The notes beneath the pieces were generated by a model. That model saw nothing but the letters and a program-made list of their open reading frames with translations, had not been told where the DNA came from and did no database searches. Positions 25,460 to 32,544 of a stretch of DNA of 64,000 nucleotides are shown here, piece by piece. How positions within the stretch are numbered: position 1 is the stretch's first letter; every line of letters starts with the position of its first letter. This DNA is from Escherichia coli phage vB_EcoM_Shy. The DNA lies in the sequence record MT833282.1; one strand, written 5' to 3'. The translations under genes and the position numbers were made by a program.

Positions 25460-26875
25460 ATGAGCGAATTATTTAAACATGCGCACCTTCATGCAGGTCG
25501 AACTGAAAATGGTGCTGTAAACCATACTTCATCAATGTCTGCTTTGGTAGACTTCTACAAAGCCGCTGGCTCAAGCCGTAGCAATGTAGAAATCTTACCA
25601 GACCTGTTCTACAAAGCTTTGCGTGAGGATGTTGATGTTGCAGTTCGTATTTTACTGCATATGCGAGATGTACGAGAAGGTATGGGTGAGCGTAAAGCTT
25701 TCCGAACTGTTTTACTTCAAGCAATTGAAGATAAAGTTTTAGAACCTACACAGGTTCTTCGCATTATGGATAAGATTGCAGAACTCGGTCGTTTTGATGA
25801 CTTCAAAATCTTCGTAGGTACTCGTTTTGAGACAGATGCCTTCAAACATTTAGAAGCAGCATTACTAGACCCTGCAACAGCAGGTTTAGCGGCTAAGTGG
25901 TTACCACGAGTAAAACCACGCCACAAACAGTTTGTAAAACGTTTCTGTAAGTTTGCAAACTTAAGTGAGAAGGAGTATCGCACACTGTTATCTGCACTGT
26001 CTGATACGGTTGAGCAAAAAATCTCTGCTAATGAGTTTGGTAAGATTGACTACAGTAAGGTTCCTTCGCTAGCTGCTGCACGTTACCAAAAACTCTTTAA
26101 CCGTAAAGATGGGGAACGTTACAAAGCTTACATCGAGTCACTCTCAAAAGGTGAGGCTAAGATTAACGCTGGTGCTGTTTACCCATATGATGTGATTAAA
26201 TCTATCAAGTATGGTAATGCAGACGTTGCTAATGAGCAGTGGAAAGCACTACCAAACTGGATGGCAGAAGGTGAAAACATCTTGTGTATGACTGATGTTT
26301 CAAGTTCAATGTCTTGGGTGAATCTTGGTTCAATCACTGCCCTTGATATTGGTGTATCACTTGCCTTGTATGTAGCAGAACGTAATACTGGTTGCTTTAA
26401 AGATGAGTTAATGGTCTATTCAACAAGCCCTCATTTCATTGAACTGAGTGGTGATTTACGAAACCGTCATCGTCAGGTAATGCGTCATGTTGAATATGGT
26501 TCAACTAACTTACAAGCAGCTTTTGACCGTATTCTTGAGGTAGGCAAGAGAAACAACTTGACTCAGAAAGATATGCCAAGTAAGCTTATTATCTTCTCTG
26601 ATATGGAGTTTAATCAGGTTGATGGTGCAAATGGTCGTACAAACTTTGAAGCAATTCAGAGTAAGTACAAAAAAGCTGGATACGAAATGCCACAACTAGT
26701 ATTCTGGTACTTAGCAAACCGTAATGGTACTTGCGAAGTATCTGTTAAGGATAATGGTGTAGCAATGGTATCAGGGTTCTCTCCAGCCACTTTAAAAGCT
26801 CTGCTTGGTGGTGAGAAGTTTGACCCAATCAGCGTAATGCTCAAAGCAGTAATGATTGACCGTTACATCTGGTAA
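25460..26875 (+). CDS. vWA-domain protein, TROVE/Ro60-like
   Basis: 471-aa ORF; helical N-region then vWA domain with MIDAS-like DxSxS (ILCMTDVSSSM), GST, IIFSDMEF and C-terminal SGFSPATL, resembling my recollection of the Ro60 vWA region; sits immediately upstream of the tRNA array. Confidence 0.55.
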   Translation: MSELFKHAHLHAGRTENGAVNHTSSMSALVDFYKAAGSSRSNVEILPDLFYKALREDVDVAVRILLHMRDVREGMGERKAFRTVLLQAIEDKVLEPTQVLRIMDKIAELGRFDDFKIFVGTRFETDAFKHLEAALLDPATAGLAAKWLPRVKPRHKQFVKRFCKFANLSEKEYRTLLSALSDTVEQKISANEFGKIDYSKVPSLAAARYQKLFNRKDGERYKAYIESLSKGEAKINAGAVYPYDVIKSIKYGNADVANEQWKALPNWMAEGENILCMTDVSSSMSWVNLGSITALDIGVSLALYVAERNTGCFKDELMVYSTSPHFIELSGDLRNRHRQVMRHVEYGSTNLQAAFDRILEVGKRNNLTQKDMPSKLIIFSDMEFNQVDGANGRTNFEAIQSKYKKAGYEMPQLVFWYLANRNGTCEVSVKDNGVAMVSGFSPATLKALLGGEKFDPISVMLKAVMIDRYIW

Positions 26876-26894
26876 AAAGTTTCAAAAAGGGTAT

Positions 26895-26922
26895 TGACAA
26901 TGTGTTTGATACCCTTTAATAT
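26895..26922 (+). promoter_or_regulatory. promoter TTGACA-16-TAATAT embedded in 8-bp inverted repeat AAGGGTAT/ATACCCTT
   Basis: promoter hexamers upstream of the tRNA array; palindrome arms flank the -35 and spacer (operator-like). Confidence 0.5.
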
Positions 26923-26984
26923 GTTCTACATAGAAACGAAATGAGAGCTTTTCTAAGATACTGAAAAATATTTTAAAAAAGTTC

Positions 26985-27014
26985 TTGACAACCACTAAAA
27001 AATAATGTTAAAGT
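26985..27014 (+). promoter_or_regulatory. promoter TTGACA-18-TAAAGT with inverted repeat AACCACT/AGTGGTT
   Basis: second promoter about 30 nt upstream of the first tRNA. Confidence 0.45.
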
Positions 27015-27040
27015 GGTTACATAGAGTTTGAAAAGTTTAT

Positions 27041-27117
27041 CTCTGTTTAGCTCAGCTTGGTAGAGCGTTCCGTTTGGGGCGGTAAGGTCGGAGGTTCAAG
27101 TCCTCCAACAGAGACCA
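27041..27117 (+). tRNA. tRNA-Pro (anticodon UGG)
   Basis: hand-folded cloverleaf: acceptor CTCTGTT/AACAGAG, D-arm GCTC..GAGC, anticodon loop TTTGGGG, T-arm GGAGG-TTCAAGT-CCTCC, CCA encoded. Confidence 0.7.
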
Positions 27118-27124
27118 AATTAAT

Positions 27125-27202
27125 GTTCCAGTAGACAAAATGGTAAAGTCACCACTCTTTCAAAGTGGATATTTGAGGGTTCAAATCCCTTCTGGAACGC
27201 CA
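27125..27202 (+). tRNA. tRNA-Glu (anticodon UUC)
   Basis: acceptor GTTCCAG/CTGGAAC, anticodon stem-loop CCACT-CTTTCAA-AGTGG, T-loop TTCAAAT. Confidence 0.7.
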
Positions 27203-27209
27203 GTTTTGA

Positions 27210-27282
27210 CAGAAGACCAATTACAGCAAGTTTAATCTTATTCATCTGACACGAAATCGGACAAAGAAGAGATTTGGTCTGG
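27210..27282 (+). ncRNA. structured spacer element A (CAGAAGACC...TwCAGCAA...GGTCTGG family)
   Basis: conserved 5' CAGAAGACCAATTACAGCAA and 3' TTGGTCTGG forming a 7-bp helix (AGACCAA/TTGGTCT); occupies the whole tRNA-Glu/tRNA-Met spacer. Confidence 0.45.
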
Positions 27283-27293
27283 TCATTAAGAAT

Positions 27294-27370
27294 TGCGGGT
27301 ATAGAGAAAGGGCGTCTCACATGTCTCATTAGCATGGTATCGGCAGGTTCGACTCCTGCACCCGCCTCCA
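27294..27370 (+). tRNA. tRNA-Met-like (anticodon CAU)
   Basis: anticodon stem-loop CATGT-CTCATTA-GCATG, T-arm GCAGG-TTCGACT-CCTGC, acceptor with mismatched first pair; Met versus Ile(CAU) not decidable by eye. Confidence 0.55.
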
Positions 27371-27376
27371 ATTTTG

Positions 27377-27436
27377 CAGAAGACCGTATTCAGCAACAAA
27401 CTACTTTTTGCGGATAAAAGAAAAAACACGGTCTGG
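27377..27436 (+). ncRNA. structured spacer element B (same family)
   Basis: CAGAAGACCGTATTCAGCAA ... ACGGTCTGG; helix AGACCGT/ACGGTCT shows compensatory changes relative to element A. Confidence 0.45.
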
Positions 27437-27447
27437 CAATGTATTAA

Positions 27448-27524
27448 GGTTAGGAAGCACATAAGGTATGTGCGGTCGCCTGTTAAGCGAATGGCACAGG
27501 GTTCGAATCCCTGACTAACCGCCA
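27448..27524 (+). tRNA. tRNA-Asn (anticodon GUU)
   Basis: D-arm GCAC..GTGC, anticodon loop CTGTTAA, T-arm CAGGG-TTCGAAT-CCCTG, CCA encoded. Confidence 0.7.
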
Positions 27525-27595
27525 AATTTAGGAGAGAAGCGATTGCTCACCGATTTGTAAGGTGCAAGTCCTTAGCCTGAATAGAATAATAAAAT

Positions 27596-27683
27596 GTGTC
27601 GTTATCCCGTAGATGGTAGCGGTGGGGACTGTAAATCCCTTGTCATTGAGACTCGGTAGGTTCGACTCCTACACGGCACACCA
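27596..27683 (+). tRNA. tRNA-Tyr (anticodon GUA), long variable arm
   Basis: acceptor GTGTCGT/ACGGCAC, anticodon loop CTGTAAA, 88 nt with extended variable arm, T-loop TTCGACT. Confidence 0.65.
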
Positions 27684-27689
27684 AATAAA

Positions 27690-27767
27690 GGTTATGTAGT
27701 TTAATCTGGTTAAAATACTCCCCTGTCACGGGAGATGATGAGGGTTCAAATCCCTTCGTAACCGCCA
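27690..27767 (+). tRNA. tRNA-Asp (anticodon GUC)
   Basis: acceptor GGTTATG/CGTAACC, anticodon stem-loop CTCCC-CTGTCAC-GGGAG, T-loop TTCAAAT. Confidence 0.7.
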
Positions 27768-27853
27768 AATTATAATAAGTATTTCAAAATGATGTTTGAG
27801 AGGGCTATTTAGCCCCTCCCTTAAAGAGTTCTTACGAGTATTCTTTAAAGGAG

Positions 27854-27926
27854 CAGAAGACCAAATTCAGCAAGAACGTATGAAATTTCAAGCCAATTTA
27901 ATTTTGAAAATTTAAACTTGGTCTGG
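27854..27926 (+). ncRNA. structured spacer element C (same family)
   Basis: CAGAAGACCAAATTCAGCAA ... CTTGGTCTGG, 7-bp helix AGACCAA/TTGGTCT. Confidence 0.45.
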
Positions 27927-27939
27927 CTCAACAAATTTA

Positions 27940-28071
27940 CAGAAGACCGTTTACAGCAAAACTTAAACAATCTATTTCTCCGGTAAAGAAAAGGCGAAGG
28001 TTCGATTCCTTCACTCGGCAGATGTCGAGTTGGTGTAATGGTAGCACTTAAGATGATAAACAATGGTCTGG
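27940..28071 (+). ncRNA. structured element D with circularly permuted tRNA-like domain (Y-RNA-like candidate)
   Basis: 5' CAGAAGACCGTTTACAGCAA and 3' CAATGGTCTGG helix enclose T-arm (GAAGG-TTCGATT-CCTTC, 27996-28012), closed acceptor-like hairpin (ACTCGGC-AGAT-GTCGAGT, 28013-28030) and D-arm (GTGT-AATGGTA-GCAC, 28033-28047); order is T-arm, acceptor, D-arm. Confidence 0.5.
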
Positions 28072-28072
28072 T

Positions 28073-28209
28073 AATTATCTTTGTAGATAAGTTATTAAGC
28101 TTCCCTGTGAGTATGCGACCACAAAGGTGAAAGGGTAGATTCTAGATTTAACCCGAAAAGACACATCGCTACAGACCTTAAGCAAGTCTGGGTAGCTTAT
28201 CTACAAAGA
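28073..28209 (+). ncRNA. long hairpin element E (18-bp perfect inverted repeat enclosing about 100 nt)
   Basis: ATTATCTTTGTAGATAAG (28073-28090) is the exact reverse complement of CTTATCTACAAAGATAAT (28192-28209); interior contains CAGACC..GTCTGG hairpin. Confidence 0.45.
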
Positions 28210-28218
28210 TAATTTAAT

Positions 28219-28294
28219 GGAAGTGTAGCAGAATGGTGATGCGGCAGACTTTTAATCTGACAGGCGATGGGTTCGAATCCCTCCACTTCTACCA
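28219..28294 (+). tRNA. tRNA-Lys (anticodon UUU)
   Basis: acceptor GGAAGTG/CACTTCT, anticodon loop CTTTTAA, T-loop TTCGAAT with weak T-stem; CCA encoded. Confidence 0.6.
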
Positions 28295-28298
28295 ATAT

Positions 28299-28375
28299 GG
28301 TTCAGTCGCAGATAAGGTAATGCAGGGGTTTCATAAGCCCTATGAATGTGGGTTCGATTCCCATCTGAACCTCCA
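28299..28375 (+). tRNA. tRNA with anticodon CAU (Met or Ile-lysidine type)
   Basis: acceptor GGTTCAG/CTGAACC, anticodon loop TTCATAA, T-arm GTGGG-TTCGATT-CCCAT. Confidence 0.6.
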
Positions 28376-28376
28376 A

Positions 28377-28452
28377 GCTGGTATAGTTAAGAAGGTTATA
28401 ACACTCCCCTGATAAGGGAATATCGGTGGTTCGATTCCACCTACCAGTACCA
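28377..28452 (+). tRNA. tRNA-Ile (anticodon GAU)
   Basis: anticodon loop CTGATAA, T-arm GGTGG-TTCGATT-CCACC, acceptor GCTGGTA/TACCAGT. Confidence 0.65.
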
Positions 28453-28476
28453 ATCTCAATAAAGTTGTTGACATTA

Positions 28477-28505
28477 AGATGTGACCACTTTATAGTAACT
28501 AAAAT
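28477..28505 (+). promoter_or_regulatory. sigma70-like promoter TTGACA-17-TATAGT inside the tRNA array
   Basis: consensus -35 and good -10; downstream 280 nt has no tRNA and no credible ORF. Confidence 0.5.
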
Positions 28506-28787
28506 ACTTCATAATATGTATAATTCAAACACCAATACATGAGCGTTAGACGTAACACAATGTGGGGAAATTTGTTGTACATATTCTGAATAGTTTTCGT
28601 TGCGTAGCGTCTATTTTGCAAATTTAAAATAAATGCAAACGACAATGTTTTCTGGCAGTAGCTTGATAGGCTAAACACCAGTGAGGTCTTCCAATCCCTC
28701 ATCAAAGAATTTGGCGTACTCGCCCACGGTATGATTAATAAGGTGGGCATCTTTAAGGGCTTTCTAAGAGAGCCTTTAAAGATTAAT

Positions 28788-28864
28788 GCACCCTTAGTTC
28801 AATTGGATAGAGCAACGGTCTTCTAAATCGTTAGTTACAGGTTCGAATCCTGTAGGGTGTGCCA
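28788..28864 (+). tRNA. tRNA-Arg (anticodon UCU)
   Basis: anticodon stem-loop ACGGT-CTTCTAA-ATCGT, T-arm ACAGG-TTCGAAT-CCTGT, acceptor GCACCCT/AGGGTGT. Confidence 0.65.
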
Positions 28865-29006
28865 AATAGTTAGCAGATTGCTTAGACGACCTTATCGGGT
28901 CTCCGTGTAAGGAGGTGGTCTGTATCTCATGTTTTCCAGAACATGTAAATAATCTGAGAAGGGGCTTTACAGTGTTGCGAAAATACGGTAAGCTTCGAAT
29001 TATAGT

Positions 29007-29089
29007 GTGGGACGATGTTAAGACTCTAAGGCATGAGCAACGGCCTCCAAAACCGTTTCAAAGGGGTTCAACTCCTCCGTCCCATGCCA
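29007..29089 (+). tRNA. atypical tRNA-like gene, possibly tRNA-Trp (anticodon CCA)
   Basis: acceptor GTGGGAC/GTCCCAT and T-arm AGGGG-TTCAACT-CCTCC fold well; anticodon loop CTCCAAA; D region is enlarged (83 nt total) so the call is tentative. Confidence 0.4.
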
Positions 29090-29102
29090 AAGTCTTATTA
29101 GG

Positions 29103-29190
29103 GGTAGGTAGCGGCTAATGGTAGCCAAACTGTCTTGAAAACAGTTGCCACTGTAGAGATACGGTGAGGGTTCGACTCCTTTACTTACCG
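29103..29190 (+). tRNA. tRNA-Ser (anticodon UGA), long variable arm
   Basis: anticodon stem-loop ACTGT-CTTGAAA-ACAGT, long variable arm, T-loop TTCGACT, acceptor GGTAGGT/ACTTACC. Confidence 0.65.
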
Positions 29191-29348
29191 CCTAATAAGA
29201 TTTTACACCGTCCATGCTTGCTCGCATTTTCGGTTTATCCCTCGTGTATTGTCGTACACACTGATAAAGCACCTAGTAGGTGTCACGGAGAAGAGATAAT
29301 ATCAAGCTCTCCAAAGGTTCTAGTCACCGGATTAAACAAGACTATGCA

Positions 29349-29370
29349 AAGACCTATTTAGGTCTTTTTA
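29349..29370 (+). terminator. rho-independent terminator-like hairpin within the tRNA array
   Basis: AAGACC-TATTTA-GGTCTT followed by TTTTT. Confidence 0.45.
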
Positions 29371-29448
29371 GAGGGCTTCTAAGGTTATTACAGCTTGTTG
29401 TGGAACCTTGTTGCTTAGGTTCTTAGAAGTTCTCTAAAAAGATTTAAT

Positions 29449-29526
29449 GGGAGATTGACGGTAATTGGTAAACCTACCATCCTTAGAAGTTGGTGTTTGA
29501 GGGTTCGAATCCCTTGTCTCCTACCA
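29449..29526 (+). tRNA. tRNA with Leu-type anticodon UAG, short variable arm (tentative Leu)
   Basis: acceptor GGGAGAT/GTCTCCT (two G-U pairs), anticodon loop CTTAGAA, T-arm GAGGG-TTCGAAT-CCCTT, A73, CCA encoded. Confidence 0.5.
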
Positions 29527-29533
29527 AATTAAT

Positions 29534-29609
29534 GCAGGTGTAGCAAAATGGTTATGCGGCTGACTCTTAATCAGTAAGACGATGGGTTCGAATCCCTCCA
29601 CCTGTACCA
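29534..29609 (+). tRNA. tRNA-Lys (anticodon CUU)
   Basis: paralogue of the 28219 tRNA; anticodon stem-loop CTGA-CTCTTAA-TCAG; same unusual T-stem. Confidence 0.6.
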
Positions 29610-29615
29610 AGCATT

Positions 29616-29692
29616 GGGGTCATAGTTTATATGGTTAAAATTCGAGTTTTGCAAACTTGGGAACTGAGTTCAATTCTCAGTGACTCCACCAA
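29616..29692 (+). tRNA. tRNA-Ala (anticodon UGC)
   Basis: acceptor GGGGTCA/TGACTCC with G3-U70, anticodon loop TTTGCAA, T-arm CTGAG-TTCAATT-CTCAG. Confidence 0.7.
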
Positions 29693-29698
29693 TTAGCG

Positions 29699-29773
29699 CA
29701 TCCATAGTTTAAACGGGAAAATTACAGTCTTCCAAACTGAGGTTGAGGGTTCGATTCCCTCTGGATGCTCCAA
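29699..29773 (+). tRNA. tRNA-Gly (anticodon UCC)
   Basis: acceptor GCATCCA/TGGATGC, anticodon loop CTTCCAA, T-arm GAGGG-TTCGATT-CCCTC. Confidence 0.7.
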
Positions 29774-29780
29774 ATTAATG

Positions 29781-29856
29781 CTCCTATCGTATAATTGGCT
29801 ATTACAGTTGCCTTGTAAGCAACTTATCAGGGTTCGAATCCTTGTGGGAGCACCAA
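29781..29856 (+). tRNA. tRNA-Thr (anticodon UGU)
   Basis: anticodon stem-loop GTTGC-CTTGTAA-GCAAC, T-loop TTCGAAT, acceptor GCTCCTA/TGGGAGC. Confidence 0.7.
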
Positions 29857-29951
29857 TTCAGAGGTCAAGTGAAAGACCGCTTTGAGTCAACTGAAGACCG
29901 TAACAAATTCCACGGAGTTGAGTTAGCGGCACAACTTCAGACCTCTTTCAT

Positions 29952-30026
29952 ACTCGCTTAGTTTATATGGTAAAACATCACCCTTACAAGATGAAGAAAA
30001 AGGTTCAAGTCCTTTAGTGAGTACCA
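29952..30026 (+). tRNA. tRNA-Val (anticodon UAC)
   Basis: anticodon loop CTTACAA, T-arm AAAGG-TTCAAGT-CCTTT, acceptor ACTCGCT/AGTGAGT. Confidence 0.6.
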
Positions 30027-30027
30027 T

Positions 30028-30105
30028 GTTCCAGTATCCCAATTGGCAGAGGATGCAAGCTCAAACCTTGTACTAGTGACGGTTCGAATCCGTCTTGGAA
30101 CACCA
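30028..30105 (+). tRNA. tRNA with Leu-type anticodon CAA, short variable arm (tentative Leu)
   Basis: acceptor GTTCCAG/TTGGAAC, anticodon stem-loop GCAAG-CTCAAAC-CTTGT, T-arm GACGG-TTCGAAT-CCGTC, A73. Confidence 0.5.
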
Positions 30106-30110
30106 ATTTT

Positions 30111-30186
30111 GCAGGATTAGTTCAAATGGATAGAGCAACAGTTTACGAAGCTGTTAATAGGGGTTCGAATCCCTTATCCTGCGCCA
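30111..30186 (+). tRNA. tRNA-Arg (anticodon ACG)
   Basis: acceptor GCAGGAT/ATCCTGC, anticodon stem-loop ACAGT-TTACGAA-GCTGT, T-loop TTCGAAT. Confidence 0.7.
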
Positions 30187-30205
30187 ATTTAAAGAGGCTA
30201 TTTAG

Positions 30206-30763
30206 ATGAGATATTTGAAGTATGCTTCATGGATTTTCTTAGCTTTGTTAGAGCCATTTGCAGCAATCTTAGCAGTTATCTTAGCACCTTTCGTAGTTCC
30301 ATTTTACAGTGAGAAGAAAGGACACTTACCTTTCGGATTTAGATGGATGGAGACATATGACAACCCTATTGATGGTGATGAAGGTCATATCGAACGATGG
30401 GCTAAGATTAGAAAGATTGGTAAGCTAGGTGTCTATATGCAGAGAGTCGGATGGCTCTGGAGAAACAAAGCTTATAACTTCTCCTACCATGTGTTAGGAA
30501 GAGATGTAAAAGATGTTACTAAGTGGAAAGGTAATATCAACGTAAGTTCTAACCCTAAAGATAATCAGACAGGTTATCTCCTAATGTGGAACAGTAATGC
30601 TTGGGGATTATTCGCTTTTATCCCATCAATTAAAGTCTTTGGTAAACAATTCTACTGGAGAATTTATGTTGGGTGGAAACTTAAAAGTGTTGTCCCAGAA
30701 GAAAGAGCATTCTCAAGGGAAAGAGTTATGTTGGCATTCTTTATTCATCCACTGAGAAAGTAA
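30206..30763 (+). CDS. membrane protein embedded in the tRNA array
   Basis: 185-aa ORF with AAAGAGG SD; N-terminal TM helix (WIFLALLEPFAAILAVILAPFVV), aromatic-rich. Confidence 0.5.
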   Translation: MRYLKYASWIFLALLEPFAAILAVILAPFVVPFYSEKKGHLPFGFRWMETYDNPIDGDEGHIERWAKIRKIGKLGVYMQRVGWLWRNKAYNFSYHVLGRDVKDVTKWKGNINVSSNPKDNQTGYLLMWNSNAWGLFAFIPSIKVFGKQFYWRIYVGWKLKSVVPEERAFSRERVMLAFFIHPLRK

Positions 30764-30771
30764 AGATTTAA

Positions 30772-30847
30772 AGGGGATTAGTTTACAAGGTTAAAACCTC
30801 GGTCTTTGAAATCGAAGAAGTTGGTTCAATTCCAACATCCCCCGCCA
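30772..30847 (+). tRNA. tRNA-Gln (anticodon UUG)
   Basis: anticodon stem-loop TCGGT-CTTTGAA-ATCGA, T-arm GTTGG-TTCAATT-CCAAC. Confidence 0.6.
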
Positions 30848-30849
30848 AT

Positions 30850-30926
30850 GCTCCATTACTCCAATTGGCAGAGGCCAGACTTAAAATCTGTGTTATGTAT
30901 CGGTTCGAATCCGATATGGAGTACCA
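30850..30926 (+). tRNA. tRNA with Leu-type anticodon UAA, short variable arm (tentative Leu)
   Basis: anticodon loop CTTAAAA, T-arm ATCGG-TTCGAAT-CCGAT, acceptor GCTCCAT/ATGGAGT, A73. Confidence 0.5.
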
Positions 30927-30931
30927 AATTT

Positions 30932-31007
30932 AGCGGTATAGCATAACTGGCAATGCAGCAGTCTCTGAAGCTGTCTTATTAAGGTTCAAATCCTTATGCC
31001 GCTGCCA
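30932..31007 (+). tRNA. tRNA-Gln (anticodon CUG)
   Basis: anticodon stem-loop GCAGT-CTCTGAA-GCTGT, T-loop TTCAAAT, acceptor AGCGGTA/TGCCGCT. Confidence 0.55.
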
Positions 31008-31038
31008 CTTCTAAGGATTCTTACGAGAGTCCTTAAAT

Positions 31039-31114
31039 GTGGCCTTATCATAAACGGTAATGACCCATGCTGTGAACATGGTCTATACGGGTTCAAATCC
31101 CGTAGGTCACCCCA
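31039..31114 (+). tRNA. tRNA-His (anticodon GUG)
   Basis: anticodon stem-loop CCATG-CTGTGAA-CATGG, T-arm ACGGG-TTCAAAT-CCCGT, acceptor GTGGCCT/AGGTCAC. Confidence 0.7.
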
Positions 31115-31119
31115 ATTTA

Positions 31120-31194
31120 TAGTCCAAGTAGCTTATATGGTTAAAGCGCGTGTCTGAAAAACATGAGAAGAGGGTTCAAATCCCACTGGACTAC
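31120..31194 (+). tRNA. tRNA-Phe (anticodon GAA)
   Basis: acceptor TAGTCCA/TGGACTA, anticodon loop CTGAAAA, T-loop TTCAAAT. Confidence 0.6.
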
Positions 31195-31212
31195 CAATTT
31201 CAAAGGTGCTTA

Positions 31213-31947
31213 ATGAAAGAGATGACAGAACAAGGTAAGGAGATTTTTAGTCTCTTAAAAACCGGTAGAGGGTTTTCTAATCCCCTTATTACTGGTGCAG
31301 CAGTTCTCGGTGGAACCGTAGCTGCCTCTACATCACTTGTAAGCTCTATTAGCTCTGTAACAGACCCTACAATAAAGGATAAACTTGTTGCTGCTGGACT
31401 TACAACAGTTCTGCTTAACAGCTTTACAACGAGTCTGACAAGCACTACATCGACTACTAAAACGCTGACAGATTATGGTCAAAAGTCTATTGATGAGTTT
31501 TCATCACGTATGCAGGTAGCAAAAGGATATTCCAATGTTATGGGTGCAGCAGGAGAACAAGTCGGTTGTACGCCATTTAGTGGTATTATGGGCGTTGCTA
31601 CAGAGTATGGTCAAAAAGCTATTGATACGATTAACAGTGCATTAGACGGTGTTAATGATGTATTAAGTGACTTACAAGACGCTATTGACAAAGGTCTTGA
31701 TACTATTTCTGATTTAGCTAACCAAGCTGTTAGTAAGATTAATGAAGGTATCTCGAAGATTACAGCTTATGCAGATGAAGTTGTGCAGATGATTGAAGAA
31801 GAAGCTGCCCTTATTGCAGAGTACCTTAAAACGAATATCAATGGGTTCTTAGCAGGTATCTTACCAGACTGGTTTGATGATGCTTGTAAAACTGGTGTAA
31901 TTGATACTATTGCAACACCAGAAATGAAGAACGCATTACAGAAATAA
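31213..31947 (+). CDS. hypothetical Ser/Thr-rich protein
   Basis: start re-assigned to ATG 31213 (the track start at 31150 lies inside tRNA-Phe); low-complexity S/T-rich centre; stop 1 nt before tRNA-Ser. Confidence 0.5.
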   Translation: MKEMTEQGKEIFSLLKTGRGFSNPLITGAAVLGGTVAASTSLVSSISSVTDPTIKDKLVAAGLTTVLLNSFTTSLTSTTSTTKTLTDYGQKSIDEFSSRMQVAKGYSNVMGAAGEQVGCTPFSGIMGVATEYGQKAIDTINSALDGVNDVLSDLQDAIDKGLDTISDLANQAVSKINEGISKITAYADEVVQMIEEEAALIAEYLKTNINGFLAGILPDWFDDACKTGVIDTIATPEMKNALQK

Positions 31948-31948
31948 T

Positions 31949-32041
31949 GGAAGATTAACCCTAAAAGGTAAGGGAGCAGTTTGCTAAACTGCCAGTAGCT
32001 GAGAAATCGGTGTACCAGTTCAAGTCTGGTATCTTCCTCCA
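31949..32041 (+). tRNA. tRNA-Ser (anticodon GCU), long variable arm
   Basis: acceptor GGAAGAT/ATCTTCC, anticodon stem-loop GCAGT-TTGCTAA-ACTGC, long variable arm, T-arm ACCAG-TTCAAGT-CTGGT. Confidence 0.75.
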
Positions 32042-32045
32042 ATTT

Positions 32046-32121
32046 GAATCCGTGACAGAAATGGCTATGTACCTGTCTGCAAAACAGGTTTATAAGGGTT
32101 CGAGTCCCTTCGGATTCTCCA
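32046..32121 (+). tRNA. tRNA-Cys (anticodon GCA)
   Basis: acceptor GAATCCG/CGGATTC, anticodon stem-loop CCTGT-CTGCAAA-ACAGG, T-arm AAGGG-TTCGAGT-CCCTT. Confidence 0.75.
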
Positions 32122-32158
32122 AGTTATTTTACTCTCTCTCAATTAAAATAATAATAAT

Positions 32159-32218
32159 GCCCTGCTATAAGTATTCTTCCTTTCGCTACCGAAGAGTATT
32201 TTTAGACAGGGCTTTTTT
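32159..32218 (+). terminator. rho-independent terminator after the tRNA array
   Basis: GC-rich stem GCCCTG...CAGGGC with nested hairpin, followed by TTTTTT. Confidence 0.65.
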
Positions 32219-32283
32219 ACAGAGTTATACTTTATAAGAAGACTTATACAGTATGTCTCTGACGTACATTGTGGTTTCTCCTT

Positions 32284-32307
32284 GACGGTCTCTGTACCGT
32301 CTTTTTT
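32284..32307 (+). terminator. second tandem terminator
   Basis: GACGG-TCTCTGTA-CCGTC followed by TTTTTT. Confidence 0.6.
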
Positions 32308-32343
32308 AAGGAGAAACATGGTTAATTATTTGGAGAAAACATA

Positions 32344-32544
32344 ATGAGCGAGACCGTTTATAAAGAACTTTATGAAGCTAATAAGAAGCTAGAATTTATG
32401 CAGAATACTATCATGGCAATTGCAGATAGATTGTCTGTAGCAACAGGTATTGATATCAAAGAAGCCTCTATGGATGCACTTCTTGATGCTGTTGATGCAA
32501 AGTTCGAAGTTAAGAAAGAAGAGACTGCTACAGACTCTGAATAA
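32344..32544 (+). CDS. small acidic protein upstream of large terminase (possible small terminase subunit)
   Basis: 66-aa ORF immediately before TerL; assignment by position only. Confidence 0.3.
   Translation: MSETVYKELYEANKKLEFMQNTIMAIADRLSVATGIDIKEASMDALLDAVDAKFEVKKEETATDSE

Follow-up and report, generated by a model that had tools for sequence, protein, structure and literature searches.

The tmRNA-SmpB system, built around transfer-messenger RNA (tmRNA), is the main ribosome-rescue system of bacteria, and several phages depend on it. We describe here a 155-nucleotide (nt) element at positions 28593-28748 of a 64,000-nt stretch of Escherichia coli phage vB_EcoM_Shy (MT833282.1; the whole stretch is called the window below), a Felix O1-like myovirus (Felixounavirus). 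The element is a member of a large phage RNA family derived from the mRNA-like part of tmRNA, and it lies in one of the larger gaps of a tRNA gene array, two of which an earlier note had picked out as possible sources of small RNAs. It is a tmRNA derivative, yet it lacks the tRNA-like domain by which tmRNA proper is defined. Two tmRNA surveys, from 2014 and 2025, both require a tRNA-like domain with CCA; the former records phage ssrA genes only in mycobacteriophages and Bacillus phage G (PMC4131195), and the latter gives the DS6A form as the sole phage example (PMC11915505). All window features described below are on the plus strand unless stated otherwise.

The closest described system is the one-piece tmRNA (RF00023). 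Both RNAs place AUA at positions -6 to -4 of an A-rich context before a GCA resume codon, both have a 10-codon tag with an AND or ANE start and a small hydrophobic end, both hold the stop codon in a hairpin loop with pseudoknots after it, and detection is mutual between a phage-derived model and host ssrA. However, the phage RNA is without acceptor stem, T-arm, CCA, helix 2 and pseudoknot 1, has two downstream pseudoknots instead of three, and carries a 5′ end antisense to tmRNA where that of tmRNA is half of the tRNA-like domain. The two-piece permuted tmRNAs of alpha-proteobacteria, cyanobacteria and others offer a second parallel, a message RNA and a tRNA-like part joined by intermolecular pairing. 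In these tmRNAs a single gene of one organism supplies both pieces, which pair by the acceptor stem and helix 2, whereas the partner of the phage RNA would be a complete host tmRNA, reached through its message region. The tmRNA of mycobacteriophage DS6A is likewise a phage-borne partial tmRNA, and a similar molecule expressed in E. coli inhibits the host tmRNA (PMC4131195, PMC11915505); it has kept the tRNA-like domain and lost the tag frame, whereas the family described here has the opposite half. Finally, the prophage anti-sRNAs or sponges AgvB and AsxR, together with other trans-antisense RNAs, are phage RNAs that pair with a conserved host non-coding RNA, as the present element would (PMC5286369, PMC8065619), but AgvB and AsxR are aimed at Hfq-dependent regulatory small RNAs and have no template function. 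A full-text literature search, which did not take in the P1 genome paper, returned no account of an RNA of the present kind, and the literature searched held no antisense RNA against tmRNA and no phage factor aimed at the tmRNA message region.

Alignments were built from 15 lineages found by BLAST and from 39 representatives out of 152 copies. Throughout the family the parts follow one order: an invariant GTTTTCG that opens a conserved 5′ region, AUAAAU followed by GCA AAC GA, a 10-codon frame, a hairpin with the stop codon, and two H-type pseudoknots. In the window, the 5′ arm GTTTTCGTTGCGTAGCGTCTATTTTGC occupies 28593-28619 and is complementary to host tmRNA by local alignment to the ssrA reverse complement. 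It is followed at 28620-28634 by an A/U-rich linker ending in AUAAAU, the upstream context of the resume codon. In one relative this linker aligns to the Rfam tmRNA consensus AAAAAUAAuU followed by GCaAACgA, and its final six bases are nearly invariant among 53 distinct family sequences. The tag frame (28635-28666) opens with a resume-like GCA at 28635 and runs into a hairpin (28652-28681) that holds the stop codon in its loop and is the equivalent of tmRNA helix 5, as judged from covariation and from the Rfam tmRNA model, which aligns the hairpin of a relative. Pseudoknot A (28682-28714) combines the stem TGAGG/CCTCA with pairing of a CCAA loop to a downstream TTGG, and pseudoknot B (28715-28748) combines the stem CGTACT/GGTATG with pairing of GCCCAC to a downstream GTGGGC, with the loop ATTAATAA.

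This structure is strongly supported by compensatory change. Over the full structure 92.1% of cells are paired, compared to 31-47% when the partners are slid by 1-3 columns, both sides have changed in 19 of 23 pairs, and compensatory cells number 151 against 45 ± 7 in shuffles; none of 500 shuffles matched any observed covariation measure. The outer stem of the stop hairpin (CTGG/CCAG) is paired in 96% of cells with three of four pairs compensatory. Helices 2 and 3 of the structure, which form pseudoknot A, are paired in 96.9% and 88.4% of cells, with both-side changes in eight of nine pairs and variants such as CAAGG/CCTTG, CCGA/TCGG and CCAG/CTGG. In pseudoknot B, stem 1 is paired throughout (100%, four of six pairs compensatory) and stem 2 in 74% of cells in the MAFFT register; for several lineages that register is shifted. 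The first stem of both pseudoknots was also predicted by RNAalifold, and the fold of the first gap as a whole is far beyond chance (z -5.0, 0 of 200 shuffles). Covariation thus supports the two downstream pseudoknots; 5′ of the resume codon, neither a pseudoknot 1 nor other conserved structure came to light.

The relationship to tmRNA was first visible as a sub-threshold match. The Rfam tmRNA model hits 28599-28787 at 17.3 bits (E 1.6e-4), short of its gathering threshold of 47, and relatives score 11-26 bits, also below threshold, over the same part of the model, the tag and hairpin. In one relative the resume context, tag and hairpin are aligned at high posterior probability. The tmRNA_permuted model gives 17-26 bits against 47, a score driven by the tag region. 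Matches to miRNA, CRISPR and Plastid-ycf2 families in the E-value-threshold scan were discarded as noise. In the reverse direction, a covariance model made from the phage alignment only (R1) found the window copy as its sole significant hit at 122.7 bits, and on enterobacterial ssrA loci its best hit was the message region in 19 of 19 cases (16-22 bits). A BLAST search of E. coli ssrA against the elements returned only T-arm matches to tRNAs, so that the relationship is an ancient one or reflects convergence on the message module, and not a recent capture of the host ssrA gene.

The tag frame carries its own signature of selection. Nearly all of 161 pattern matches read a 10-codon tag, in more than 20 variants of the form AN[DE]x..[LMV][AVM]A, the commonest being ANDDLMMVAA (33 copies), ANDNVFLAVA (30), ANDDVVLMAA (23), ANEEMYLAVA (13) and ANDEQFLAVA (12). 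In length and general pattern these equal the enterobacterial tag ANDENYALAA. Among the 53 distinct sequences, entropy over codons 3-10 is 0.77, 0.54 and 1.19 at the first, second and third codon positions, and codon pairs that differ by one base are synonymous or non-synonymous at 1771:1720 in the GCA frame, as against 97:3945 and 991:3033 in the other two. Since the three-base period in entropy and the synonymous excess occur in the GCA frame only, the sequence comparison indicates that the tag is under selection as a peptide. The frame has no start codon, and a frame of this kind in tmRNA is read by trans-translation only.

One alternative would be a complete phage tmRNA, able to function by itself, with a tRNA-like domain that has diverged beyond recognition or is split or permuted, and the tmRNA-like tag frame, hairpin and pseudoknots agree with it. 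The domain itself was not found where it was sought. ARAGORN made no tmRNA call in the window, in three relatives or in any of 126 unique elements with 600 nt of downstream flank, and the Rfam scores lie far under threshold. Between pseudoknot B and tRNA-Arg(UCU) (28788-28864) the window holds only a simple 12-bp hairpin, at 28750-28782, directly 5′ of the tRNA in the predicted fold; relatives have a longer hairpin there. On the 5′ side, the end of the -10 box is separated from GTTTTCG by 7 nt in Moogle-type Ounavirinae, the relatives without a leader insertion, and by 11-12 nt in T1-like phages, which puts the predicted transcript start of both groups within about 5 nt of the arm and therefore leaves no room for a 5′ acceptor strand. 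Duplexes of the 5′ region with 400-900 nt of downstream sequence, which could have formed a helix 2 or tRNA-like domain in cis, were no better than shuffles outside one lineage. Nor does an acceptor piece precede the element in the same precursor as in two-piece tmRNAs, the upstream neighbors being a promoter and tRNA-Ile in the window or a tail gene on the opposite strand in MK54, Sf11 and pYD38-A.

The lineage that stands apart is Klebsiella phage P4b (L013, about 913-1030). Here the arm has a second complement further 3′, the segment GCGTGATTGGTTCACGAGAGC (z -3.7); a canonical T-arm, GTAGGTTCGATTCCTAC, and CCTTGCC-ACC come after this segment, so that a tRNA-like 3′ end may be present in cis. 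A self-sufficient tmRNA also draws some support from the hairpin modules that flank the element in lambdoid and N4-like phages, some of which contain a T-arm-like GGTTCGAATCC, and from a CCA just before GTTTTCG. With no conserved long-range pairing of the 5′ region found outside P4b, we regard a complete phage tmRNA as very unlikely.

The flanking hairpin modules, AGGTAAGAGCAT...GTGCTCTTTCC, are repeated around the element in lambdoid, T1-like and N4-like phages (L001 2340-2460 and 2615-2710; L003 2615-2690; IMG/VR loci L049, L052, L053 and L055). Some enclose the T-arm-like GGTTCGAATCC, and the modules may act as tRNA-like processing signals. In lambdoid prophages the upstream module ends ...CUCUUUCCA directly before GUUUUCG. 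In addition, P4b (L013 271-352) and HK633 (L001, about 2735-2775) have tRNA-like genes with a 22-nt "anticodon loop" that lies within the conserved motif CAGGAGAGCTTCG(A/G)AAGAACAAGGTGCCTG; their acceptor, D-arm and T-arm are normal, and they are unannotated and were not called by ARAGORN.

The 5′ region is conserved, yet RNAalifold gave it no structure, which suggests an external partner. The predicted partner is the host tmRNA itself, over about nt 68-104 of the enterobacterial molecule, a segment that runs from the 3′ part of pseudoknot 1 (PK1) across the resume codon to the fifth tag codon. GTTTTCG complements CGAAAAC of tag codons 3-5, GCGACT complements AGUCGC across the resume codon, and TTTGCGG complements CCGCAAA of the PK1 3′ strand. 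By local alignment, 56 of 58 distinct arms match the E. coli ssrA reverse complement (p<0.05, z up to 10.5), whereas the forward strand gave noise only, and both printed arm alignments begin at one ssrA position. With the heptamer removed, 40 of the 58 arms are still significant, and for 57 of the 58 the best alignment lies at tmRNA nt 60-95. The commoner GCGACUUUGCGG-type arms are predicted to form duplexes with E. coli tmRNA nt 41-105 of -44 to -49 kcal/mol (z -4 to -7.5), and 61 of 62 arms match the host tmRNA better than their own message region. The family thus possesses, at the level of sequence, the extended, conserved and above-chance complementarity that is looked for in a trans-acting antisense RNA. 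The linker inside the arm varies from 2 to 12 nt in lengths that are not multiples of three, which excludes a coding explanation on the opposite strand. Since the target is near-identical in about 120 ssrA genes of Enterobacterales and Orbales, the uniformity of arms across unrelated phages is accounted for; a search for arm-host co-variation with a Yersinia-specific arm pattern returned only a chance hit in a coding region, and the host targets in Enterobacterales are too uniform to reveal co-variation. Complementarity to ssrA was absent from the other non-coding segments compared, namely the second-gap block, the middle gap, the leader hairpin and the 27768-28218 gap.

The arm of the window copy belongs to a second, more A/U-rich type with weaker complementarity than the GCGACUUUGCGG-type arms. 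About 22 nt could pair, with GUUUUCGUUG predicted to contact tmRNA nt 95-104 and GCG.CUAUUUU nt 81-91, and its match to the ssrA reverse complement (z about 4, p<=0.007-0.015) is in the same register as in the rest of the family.

On the basis of these features, the reading that we consider best, with a probability of about 0.5, is that the RNA docks on the tmRNA of the host and hides the tag template there, perhaps offering its own instead. The arm would pair with host tmRNA at nt ~68-104, where the linker and the first codons are single-stranded, and pairing would open the second stem of PK1. The A-rich frame-setting nucleotides, the resume codon and tag codons 1-5 would be masked, and the minimum effect would be a block of host tagging. 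The phage strand would leave the duplex beside the residual PK1 hairpin and reach its own AUAAAU and GCA after 15-22 nt, a layout like the native one of helix, linker of about 11 nt and resume codon. The phage resume codon and tag frame would then be tethered beside the host tRNA-like domain and SmpB. Expression would fall in lytic growth, from the element's own promoter in virulent phages, from the late operon in lambdoid phages and from the C1-repressed ban operon in P1.

The fuller form of this proposal is an inter-species, two-RNA tmRNA, in which the phage RNA hijacks trans-translation and the phage determines the tag with which stalled ribosomes are rescued. It is advanced tentatively and is possible rather than probable. 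Among the readings considered, no other accounts for the lack of a tRNA-like domain together with a tag under selection. The main rival to this two-RNA model is a plain antisense inhibitor, in which the arm shuts off host tagging, perhaps with cleavage by RNase III, while the message part and pseudoknots are an inherited scaffold with a stabilizing or protein-binding role only. The complementarity of the arm speaks equally for both, and the plain inhibitor can accommodate the broken tag frames tolerated in the window copy and in Salmonella phage MBP4696116. However, the three-base periodicity and synonymous excess in one frame only, the 10-codon length and stop kept in nearly all members, and the nearly invariant AUAAAU and GCA are features that an untranslated scaffold would not be expected to keep, and we therefore consider an antisense function alone unlikely.

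Several points weigh against tmRNA docking with a tag swap. The transcript, pairing and tagging of the family are all predictions from sequence. Loading of a ribosome onto a message tethered by base pairing alone is an assumption of the model. The phage tags resemble ordinary degrons, and what a phage would gain from exchanging one for another is not evident. Most IMG/VR copies were selected with a pattern that contained GTTTTCG, so that the invariance of this heptamer rests on the 15 lineages found by BLAST. Substitutions in the arms that preserve wobble pairing were not clearly enriched (23 versus 32, with 1:2 expected by chance; not significant). P4b represents a lineage with a possible tRNA-like 3′ end in cis. 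The copy in the window is frameshifted, its predicted arm duplex of -25 kcal/mol (z -0.7) is no better than shuffles, and without the heptamer its similarity to the ssrA reverse complement reaches only p<=0.07.

The tag frame and stop within a helix-5-like hairpin are present in the family, whereas the tag frame of the window copy is broken. A change from T5 to T4 in the run at 28648-28651 converts its tag to ANDNVFWQ, ended by an in-frame TAG at 28659-28661 ahead of the ancestral TGA at 28664-28666; MBP4696116 has the same change. Thirty other Ounavirinae copies read an intact ANDNVFLAVA and stop, and all 27 IMG/VR matches to a pattern tolerant of run length have the longer T run. Either this lineage has lost the degron, or the change is a sequencing error in a homopolymer. 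Under the docking model, the window copy could still act through its arm and would add no degron. A decaying, functionless remnant in this phage, with the gaps serving as spacers and processing signals of a tRNA operon, would fit the frameshift, the weaker arm type, a stretch 3′ of pseudoknot B that is shorter than in GEP101 and Moogle, and the common occurrence of hairpins beside tRNAs in the array. We judge it unlikely, given that the copy has kept intact its promoter, arm, resume context, hairpin and two pseudoknots and scores 122.7 bits against the family model, that the tag is intact in the 30 other Ounavirinae, and that a deletion in a homopolymer run could be recent or a sequencing error.

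In order to determine the distribution of the family, the first gap was compared with phage records by sensitive BLAST, and 598 records matched. Beyond Ounavirinae, 28626-28749 matches the lambdoid phage HK633, a 157-kb Kuttervirus, the N4-like phage Pollock and 46-kb siphoviruses of Klebsiella, Shigella and E. coli; the matching DNA is nearly always unannotated. A search with the copy of Klebsiella phage MK54 matched 789 records, P1 among them. The phages that carry the family include Ounavirinae, Kuttervirus (Vi01-like), T1-like, N4-like, 9g-like and lambdoid phages and P1. In E. coli, copies were found in 350 of 5426 complete genomes (~6%), in chromosomes and in P1-like and ~110-kb plasmids; RefSeq has no RNA feature at the listed sites of the 355 E. 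coli records from these genomes, and phage GenBank records have at family sites either no feature or hypothetical proteins only.

The genomic contexts are varied. In HK633 the copy is in the Q-dependent late leader, flanked by the late promoter PR′ and its qut site on one side and by the holin gene on the other. The P1 copy, with tag ANDDLMMVAA, is in the leader of the C1-controlled ban operon (L004 1889-2445), directly after a dicF-like region and before tRNA-Asn and tRNA-Thr; of the copy and the dicF-like region, only the latter is annotated in the P1 GenBank record. Two different elements related to host RNAs, dicF-like and tmRNA-like, thus adjoin in P1. MK54, pYD38-A and Sf11 each have a promoter of their own 5′ of the copy and an upstream tail gene on the opposite strand, with tRNA-Arg(UCU) and tRNA-Met on the 3′ side in MK54 and pYD38-A and tRNA-Ser and tRNA-Arg(UCU) in Sf11. 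An Erwinia Kolesnikvirus has its copy within a tRNA array, and Salmonella Kuttervirus sal1 in a 2.3-kb unannotated region (L002 1675-3988). In this sal1 region, a promoter and a large 5′ hairpin precede the element, and several T-arm-like motifs and long hairpins follow it. For about 30% of elements the next tRNA is tRNA-Arg(UCU) or tRNA-Asn.

In the window, the element is part of an array of 26 tRNA genes (27041-32121, ARAGORN). The region 28400-29450 is 98.7% identical to Escherichia phage CL1 and matches 278 records, nearly all from Ounavirinae. Two of the larger gaps of the array were studied, 28453-28787 and 29193-29448, the latter between tRNA-Ser(UGA) and tRNA-Leu(UAG). The first begins, after tRNA-Ile, with a sigma-70-type promoter, TTGACA-17-TATAGT, whose sequence the earlier note had read correctly but placed 9 nt too far downstream, at 28477-28505; it lies at 28468-28496. 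This site matches 11 of 12 consensus positions and is the best-scoring one within 26500-32500, although the region as a whole has no excess of promoter-like sites (12 against 13.6 expected). Because it is conserved in relatives, GEP101 and Moogle among them, and stands directly 5′ of the conserved element, we consider it credible. From this promoter the order is a leader hairpin, the 155-nt element, tRNA-Arg, a tRNA-like sequence, tRNA-Ser, a 113-nt block and a terminator hairpin, and RNase P, cutting at tRNA-Arg, probably generates the 3′ end of the first RNA. The leader hairpin (28508-28590), a long stem in the minimum-energy fold, is a variable insertion of about 90 nt that is missing from Moogle and many Felixounaviruses, for which BLAST matches fall into two pieces with ~73% query coverage.

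The proposal that the first gap encodes a small RNA rather than a tRNA or protein has gained support. ARAGORN and Rfam find no tRNA in 28453-28787, the only longer open reading frame (ORF) is an 83-residue one on the minus strand that appears implausible by eye, and the widespread, covariation-supported element is a conserved RNA, whose kinship with tmRNA the earlier note had not recognized. An inverted repeat to which attention had been drawn, AGACG..CGTCT, does exist (28548-28552 and 28608-28612), but its halves do not pair with each other in the predicted fold; the first belongs to the variable leader hairpin and the second to the conserved 5′ arm, so that the repeat is outside the conserved structure.

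The array contains further tRNA-like sequences. The sequence at 29005-29088 has a 10-bp acceptor-type stem, an aberrant D region, a loop CCUCCAAAA with CCA (Trp-like) and a T-arm GGGGTTCAACTCCTC; it is not called by ARAGORN and matches the Rfam tRNA-Sec model at 23 bits (E 0.12), and Erwinia relatives have a normal tRNA-Trp in their array. Within the 450-nt gene-free gap 27768-28218, positions 27963-28013 show a partial tRNA match, T-arm and 3′ acceptor strand (Rfam tRNA, 22 bits, model positions 7-64), and are possibly what is left of a tRNA. Several Felixounaviruses have an annotated HNH endonuclease gene where the middle gap (28865-29102) matches their sequence, and GEP101 has a degenerate tRNA-like sequence in place of tRNA-Arg(UCU), followed by an HNH gene (L016 2246-2638).

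The second gap was compared among 17 distinct Felixounavirus, Mooglevirus and Suspvirus sequences. After tRNA-Ser comes a variable hairpin (29207-29234) in at least three unrelated sequence versions; the window version is a hairpin in the fold, and the hairpin potential of the others was read by eye. The following 113 nt (29235-29347) are near-invariant, with almost no substitutions while the flanks vary, and represent the candidate body of a small RNA. This block is confined to Ounavirinae, has no Rfam match and has no promoter of its own in the scan. It is followed at 29348-29369 by a terminator-like hairpin, AAAGACC-TATTTA-GGTCTTTTT, with a U run. Relatives share the stem and differ in the loop, in sequence and by 1-2 nt in length, and the strict terminator scan did not call this hairpin. 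A long spacer hairpin 5′ of tRNA-Leu(UAG) (29370-29435) was paired by eye, and the Moogle-type variant, although different in sequence, retains pairing by eye. The hairpins GTGTA..TACAC and CACCT..AGGTG and the terminator noted earlier for this gap are borne out, the first two lying in the minimum-energy fold.

The second gap is plausibly, as far as its sequence indicates, a separate small RNA that ends at the terminator and is the 3′-terminal one in the unit starting at 28468, because the invariant block, the conserved terminator hairpin and the indels against an ORF of 48 residues fit this explanation. However, its fold is no more stable than shuffles (z -1.5), and the block has no variation from which covariation could be assessed. 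Accordingly, the earlier observation is partly confirmed and its small-RNA interpretation partly supported: the Rfam scan and the comparison of relatives that it had called for gave tRNAs, sub-threshold tmRNA hits and a widespread element for the first gap, and no match and an Ounavirinae-only block for the second. The remaining alternative, that the gaps encode small proteins, is hardly credible. The two ORFs exist, and hypothetical proteins are annotated here in some GenBank records, but the 83-residue minus-strand ORF (28499-28750) overlies stems with compensatory substitutions at the RNA level, and the 48-residue ORF (29280-29426), which crosses the terminator loop, is frameshifted by the 1-2-nt indels of relatives and was rejected as coding for that reason. 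Moreover, the invariant block shows no synonymous-type variation.

The family is abundant, with members in hundreds of sequenced phages and ~6% of complete E. coli genomes, and no copy was seen annotated as an RNA gene. Two predictions follow from it: that the RNA pairs with tmRNA nt 68-104, and that truncated proteins carry phage-specific tags. If the antisense part alone is true, it would be a first phage inhibitor of trans-translation that acts on the RNA itself; if the tag-swap model is true, the tRNA and mRNA functions of tmRNA would be divisible between host and virus. The element usually adjoins phage tRNA genes, a linkage that would fit a role in sustaining translation during infection, and it also bears on why phages carry tRNA clusters, as a matter of translation under host attack.

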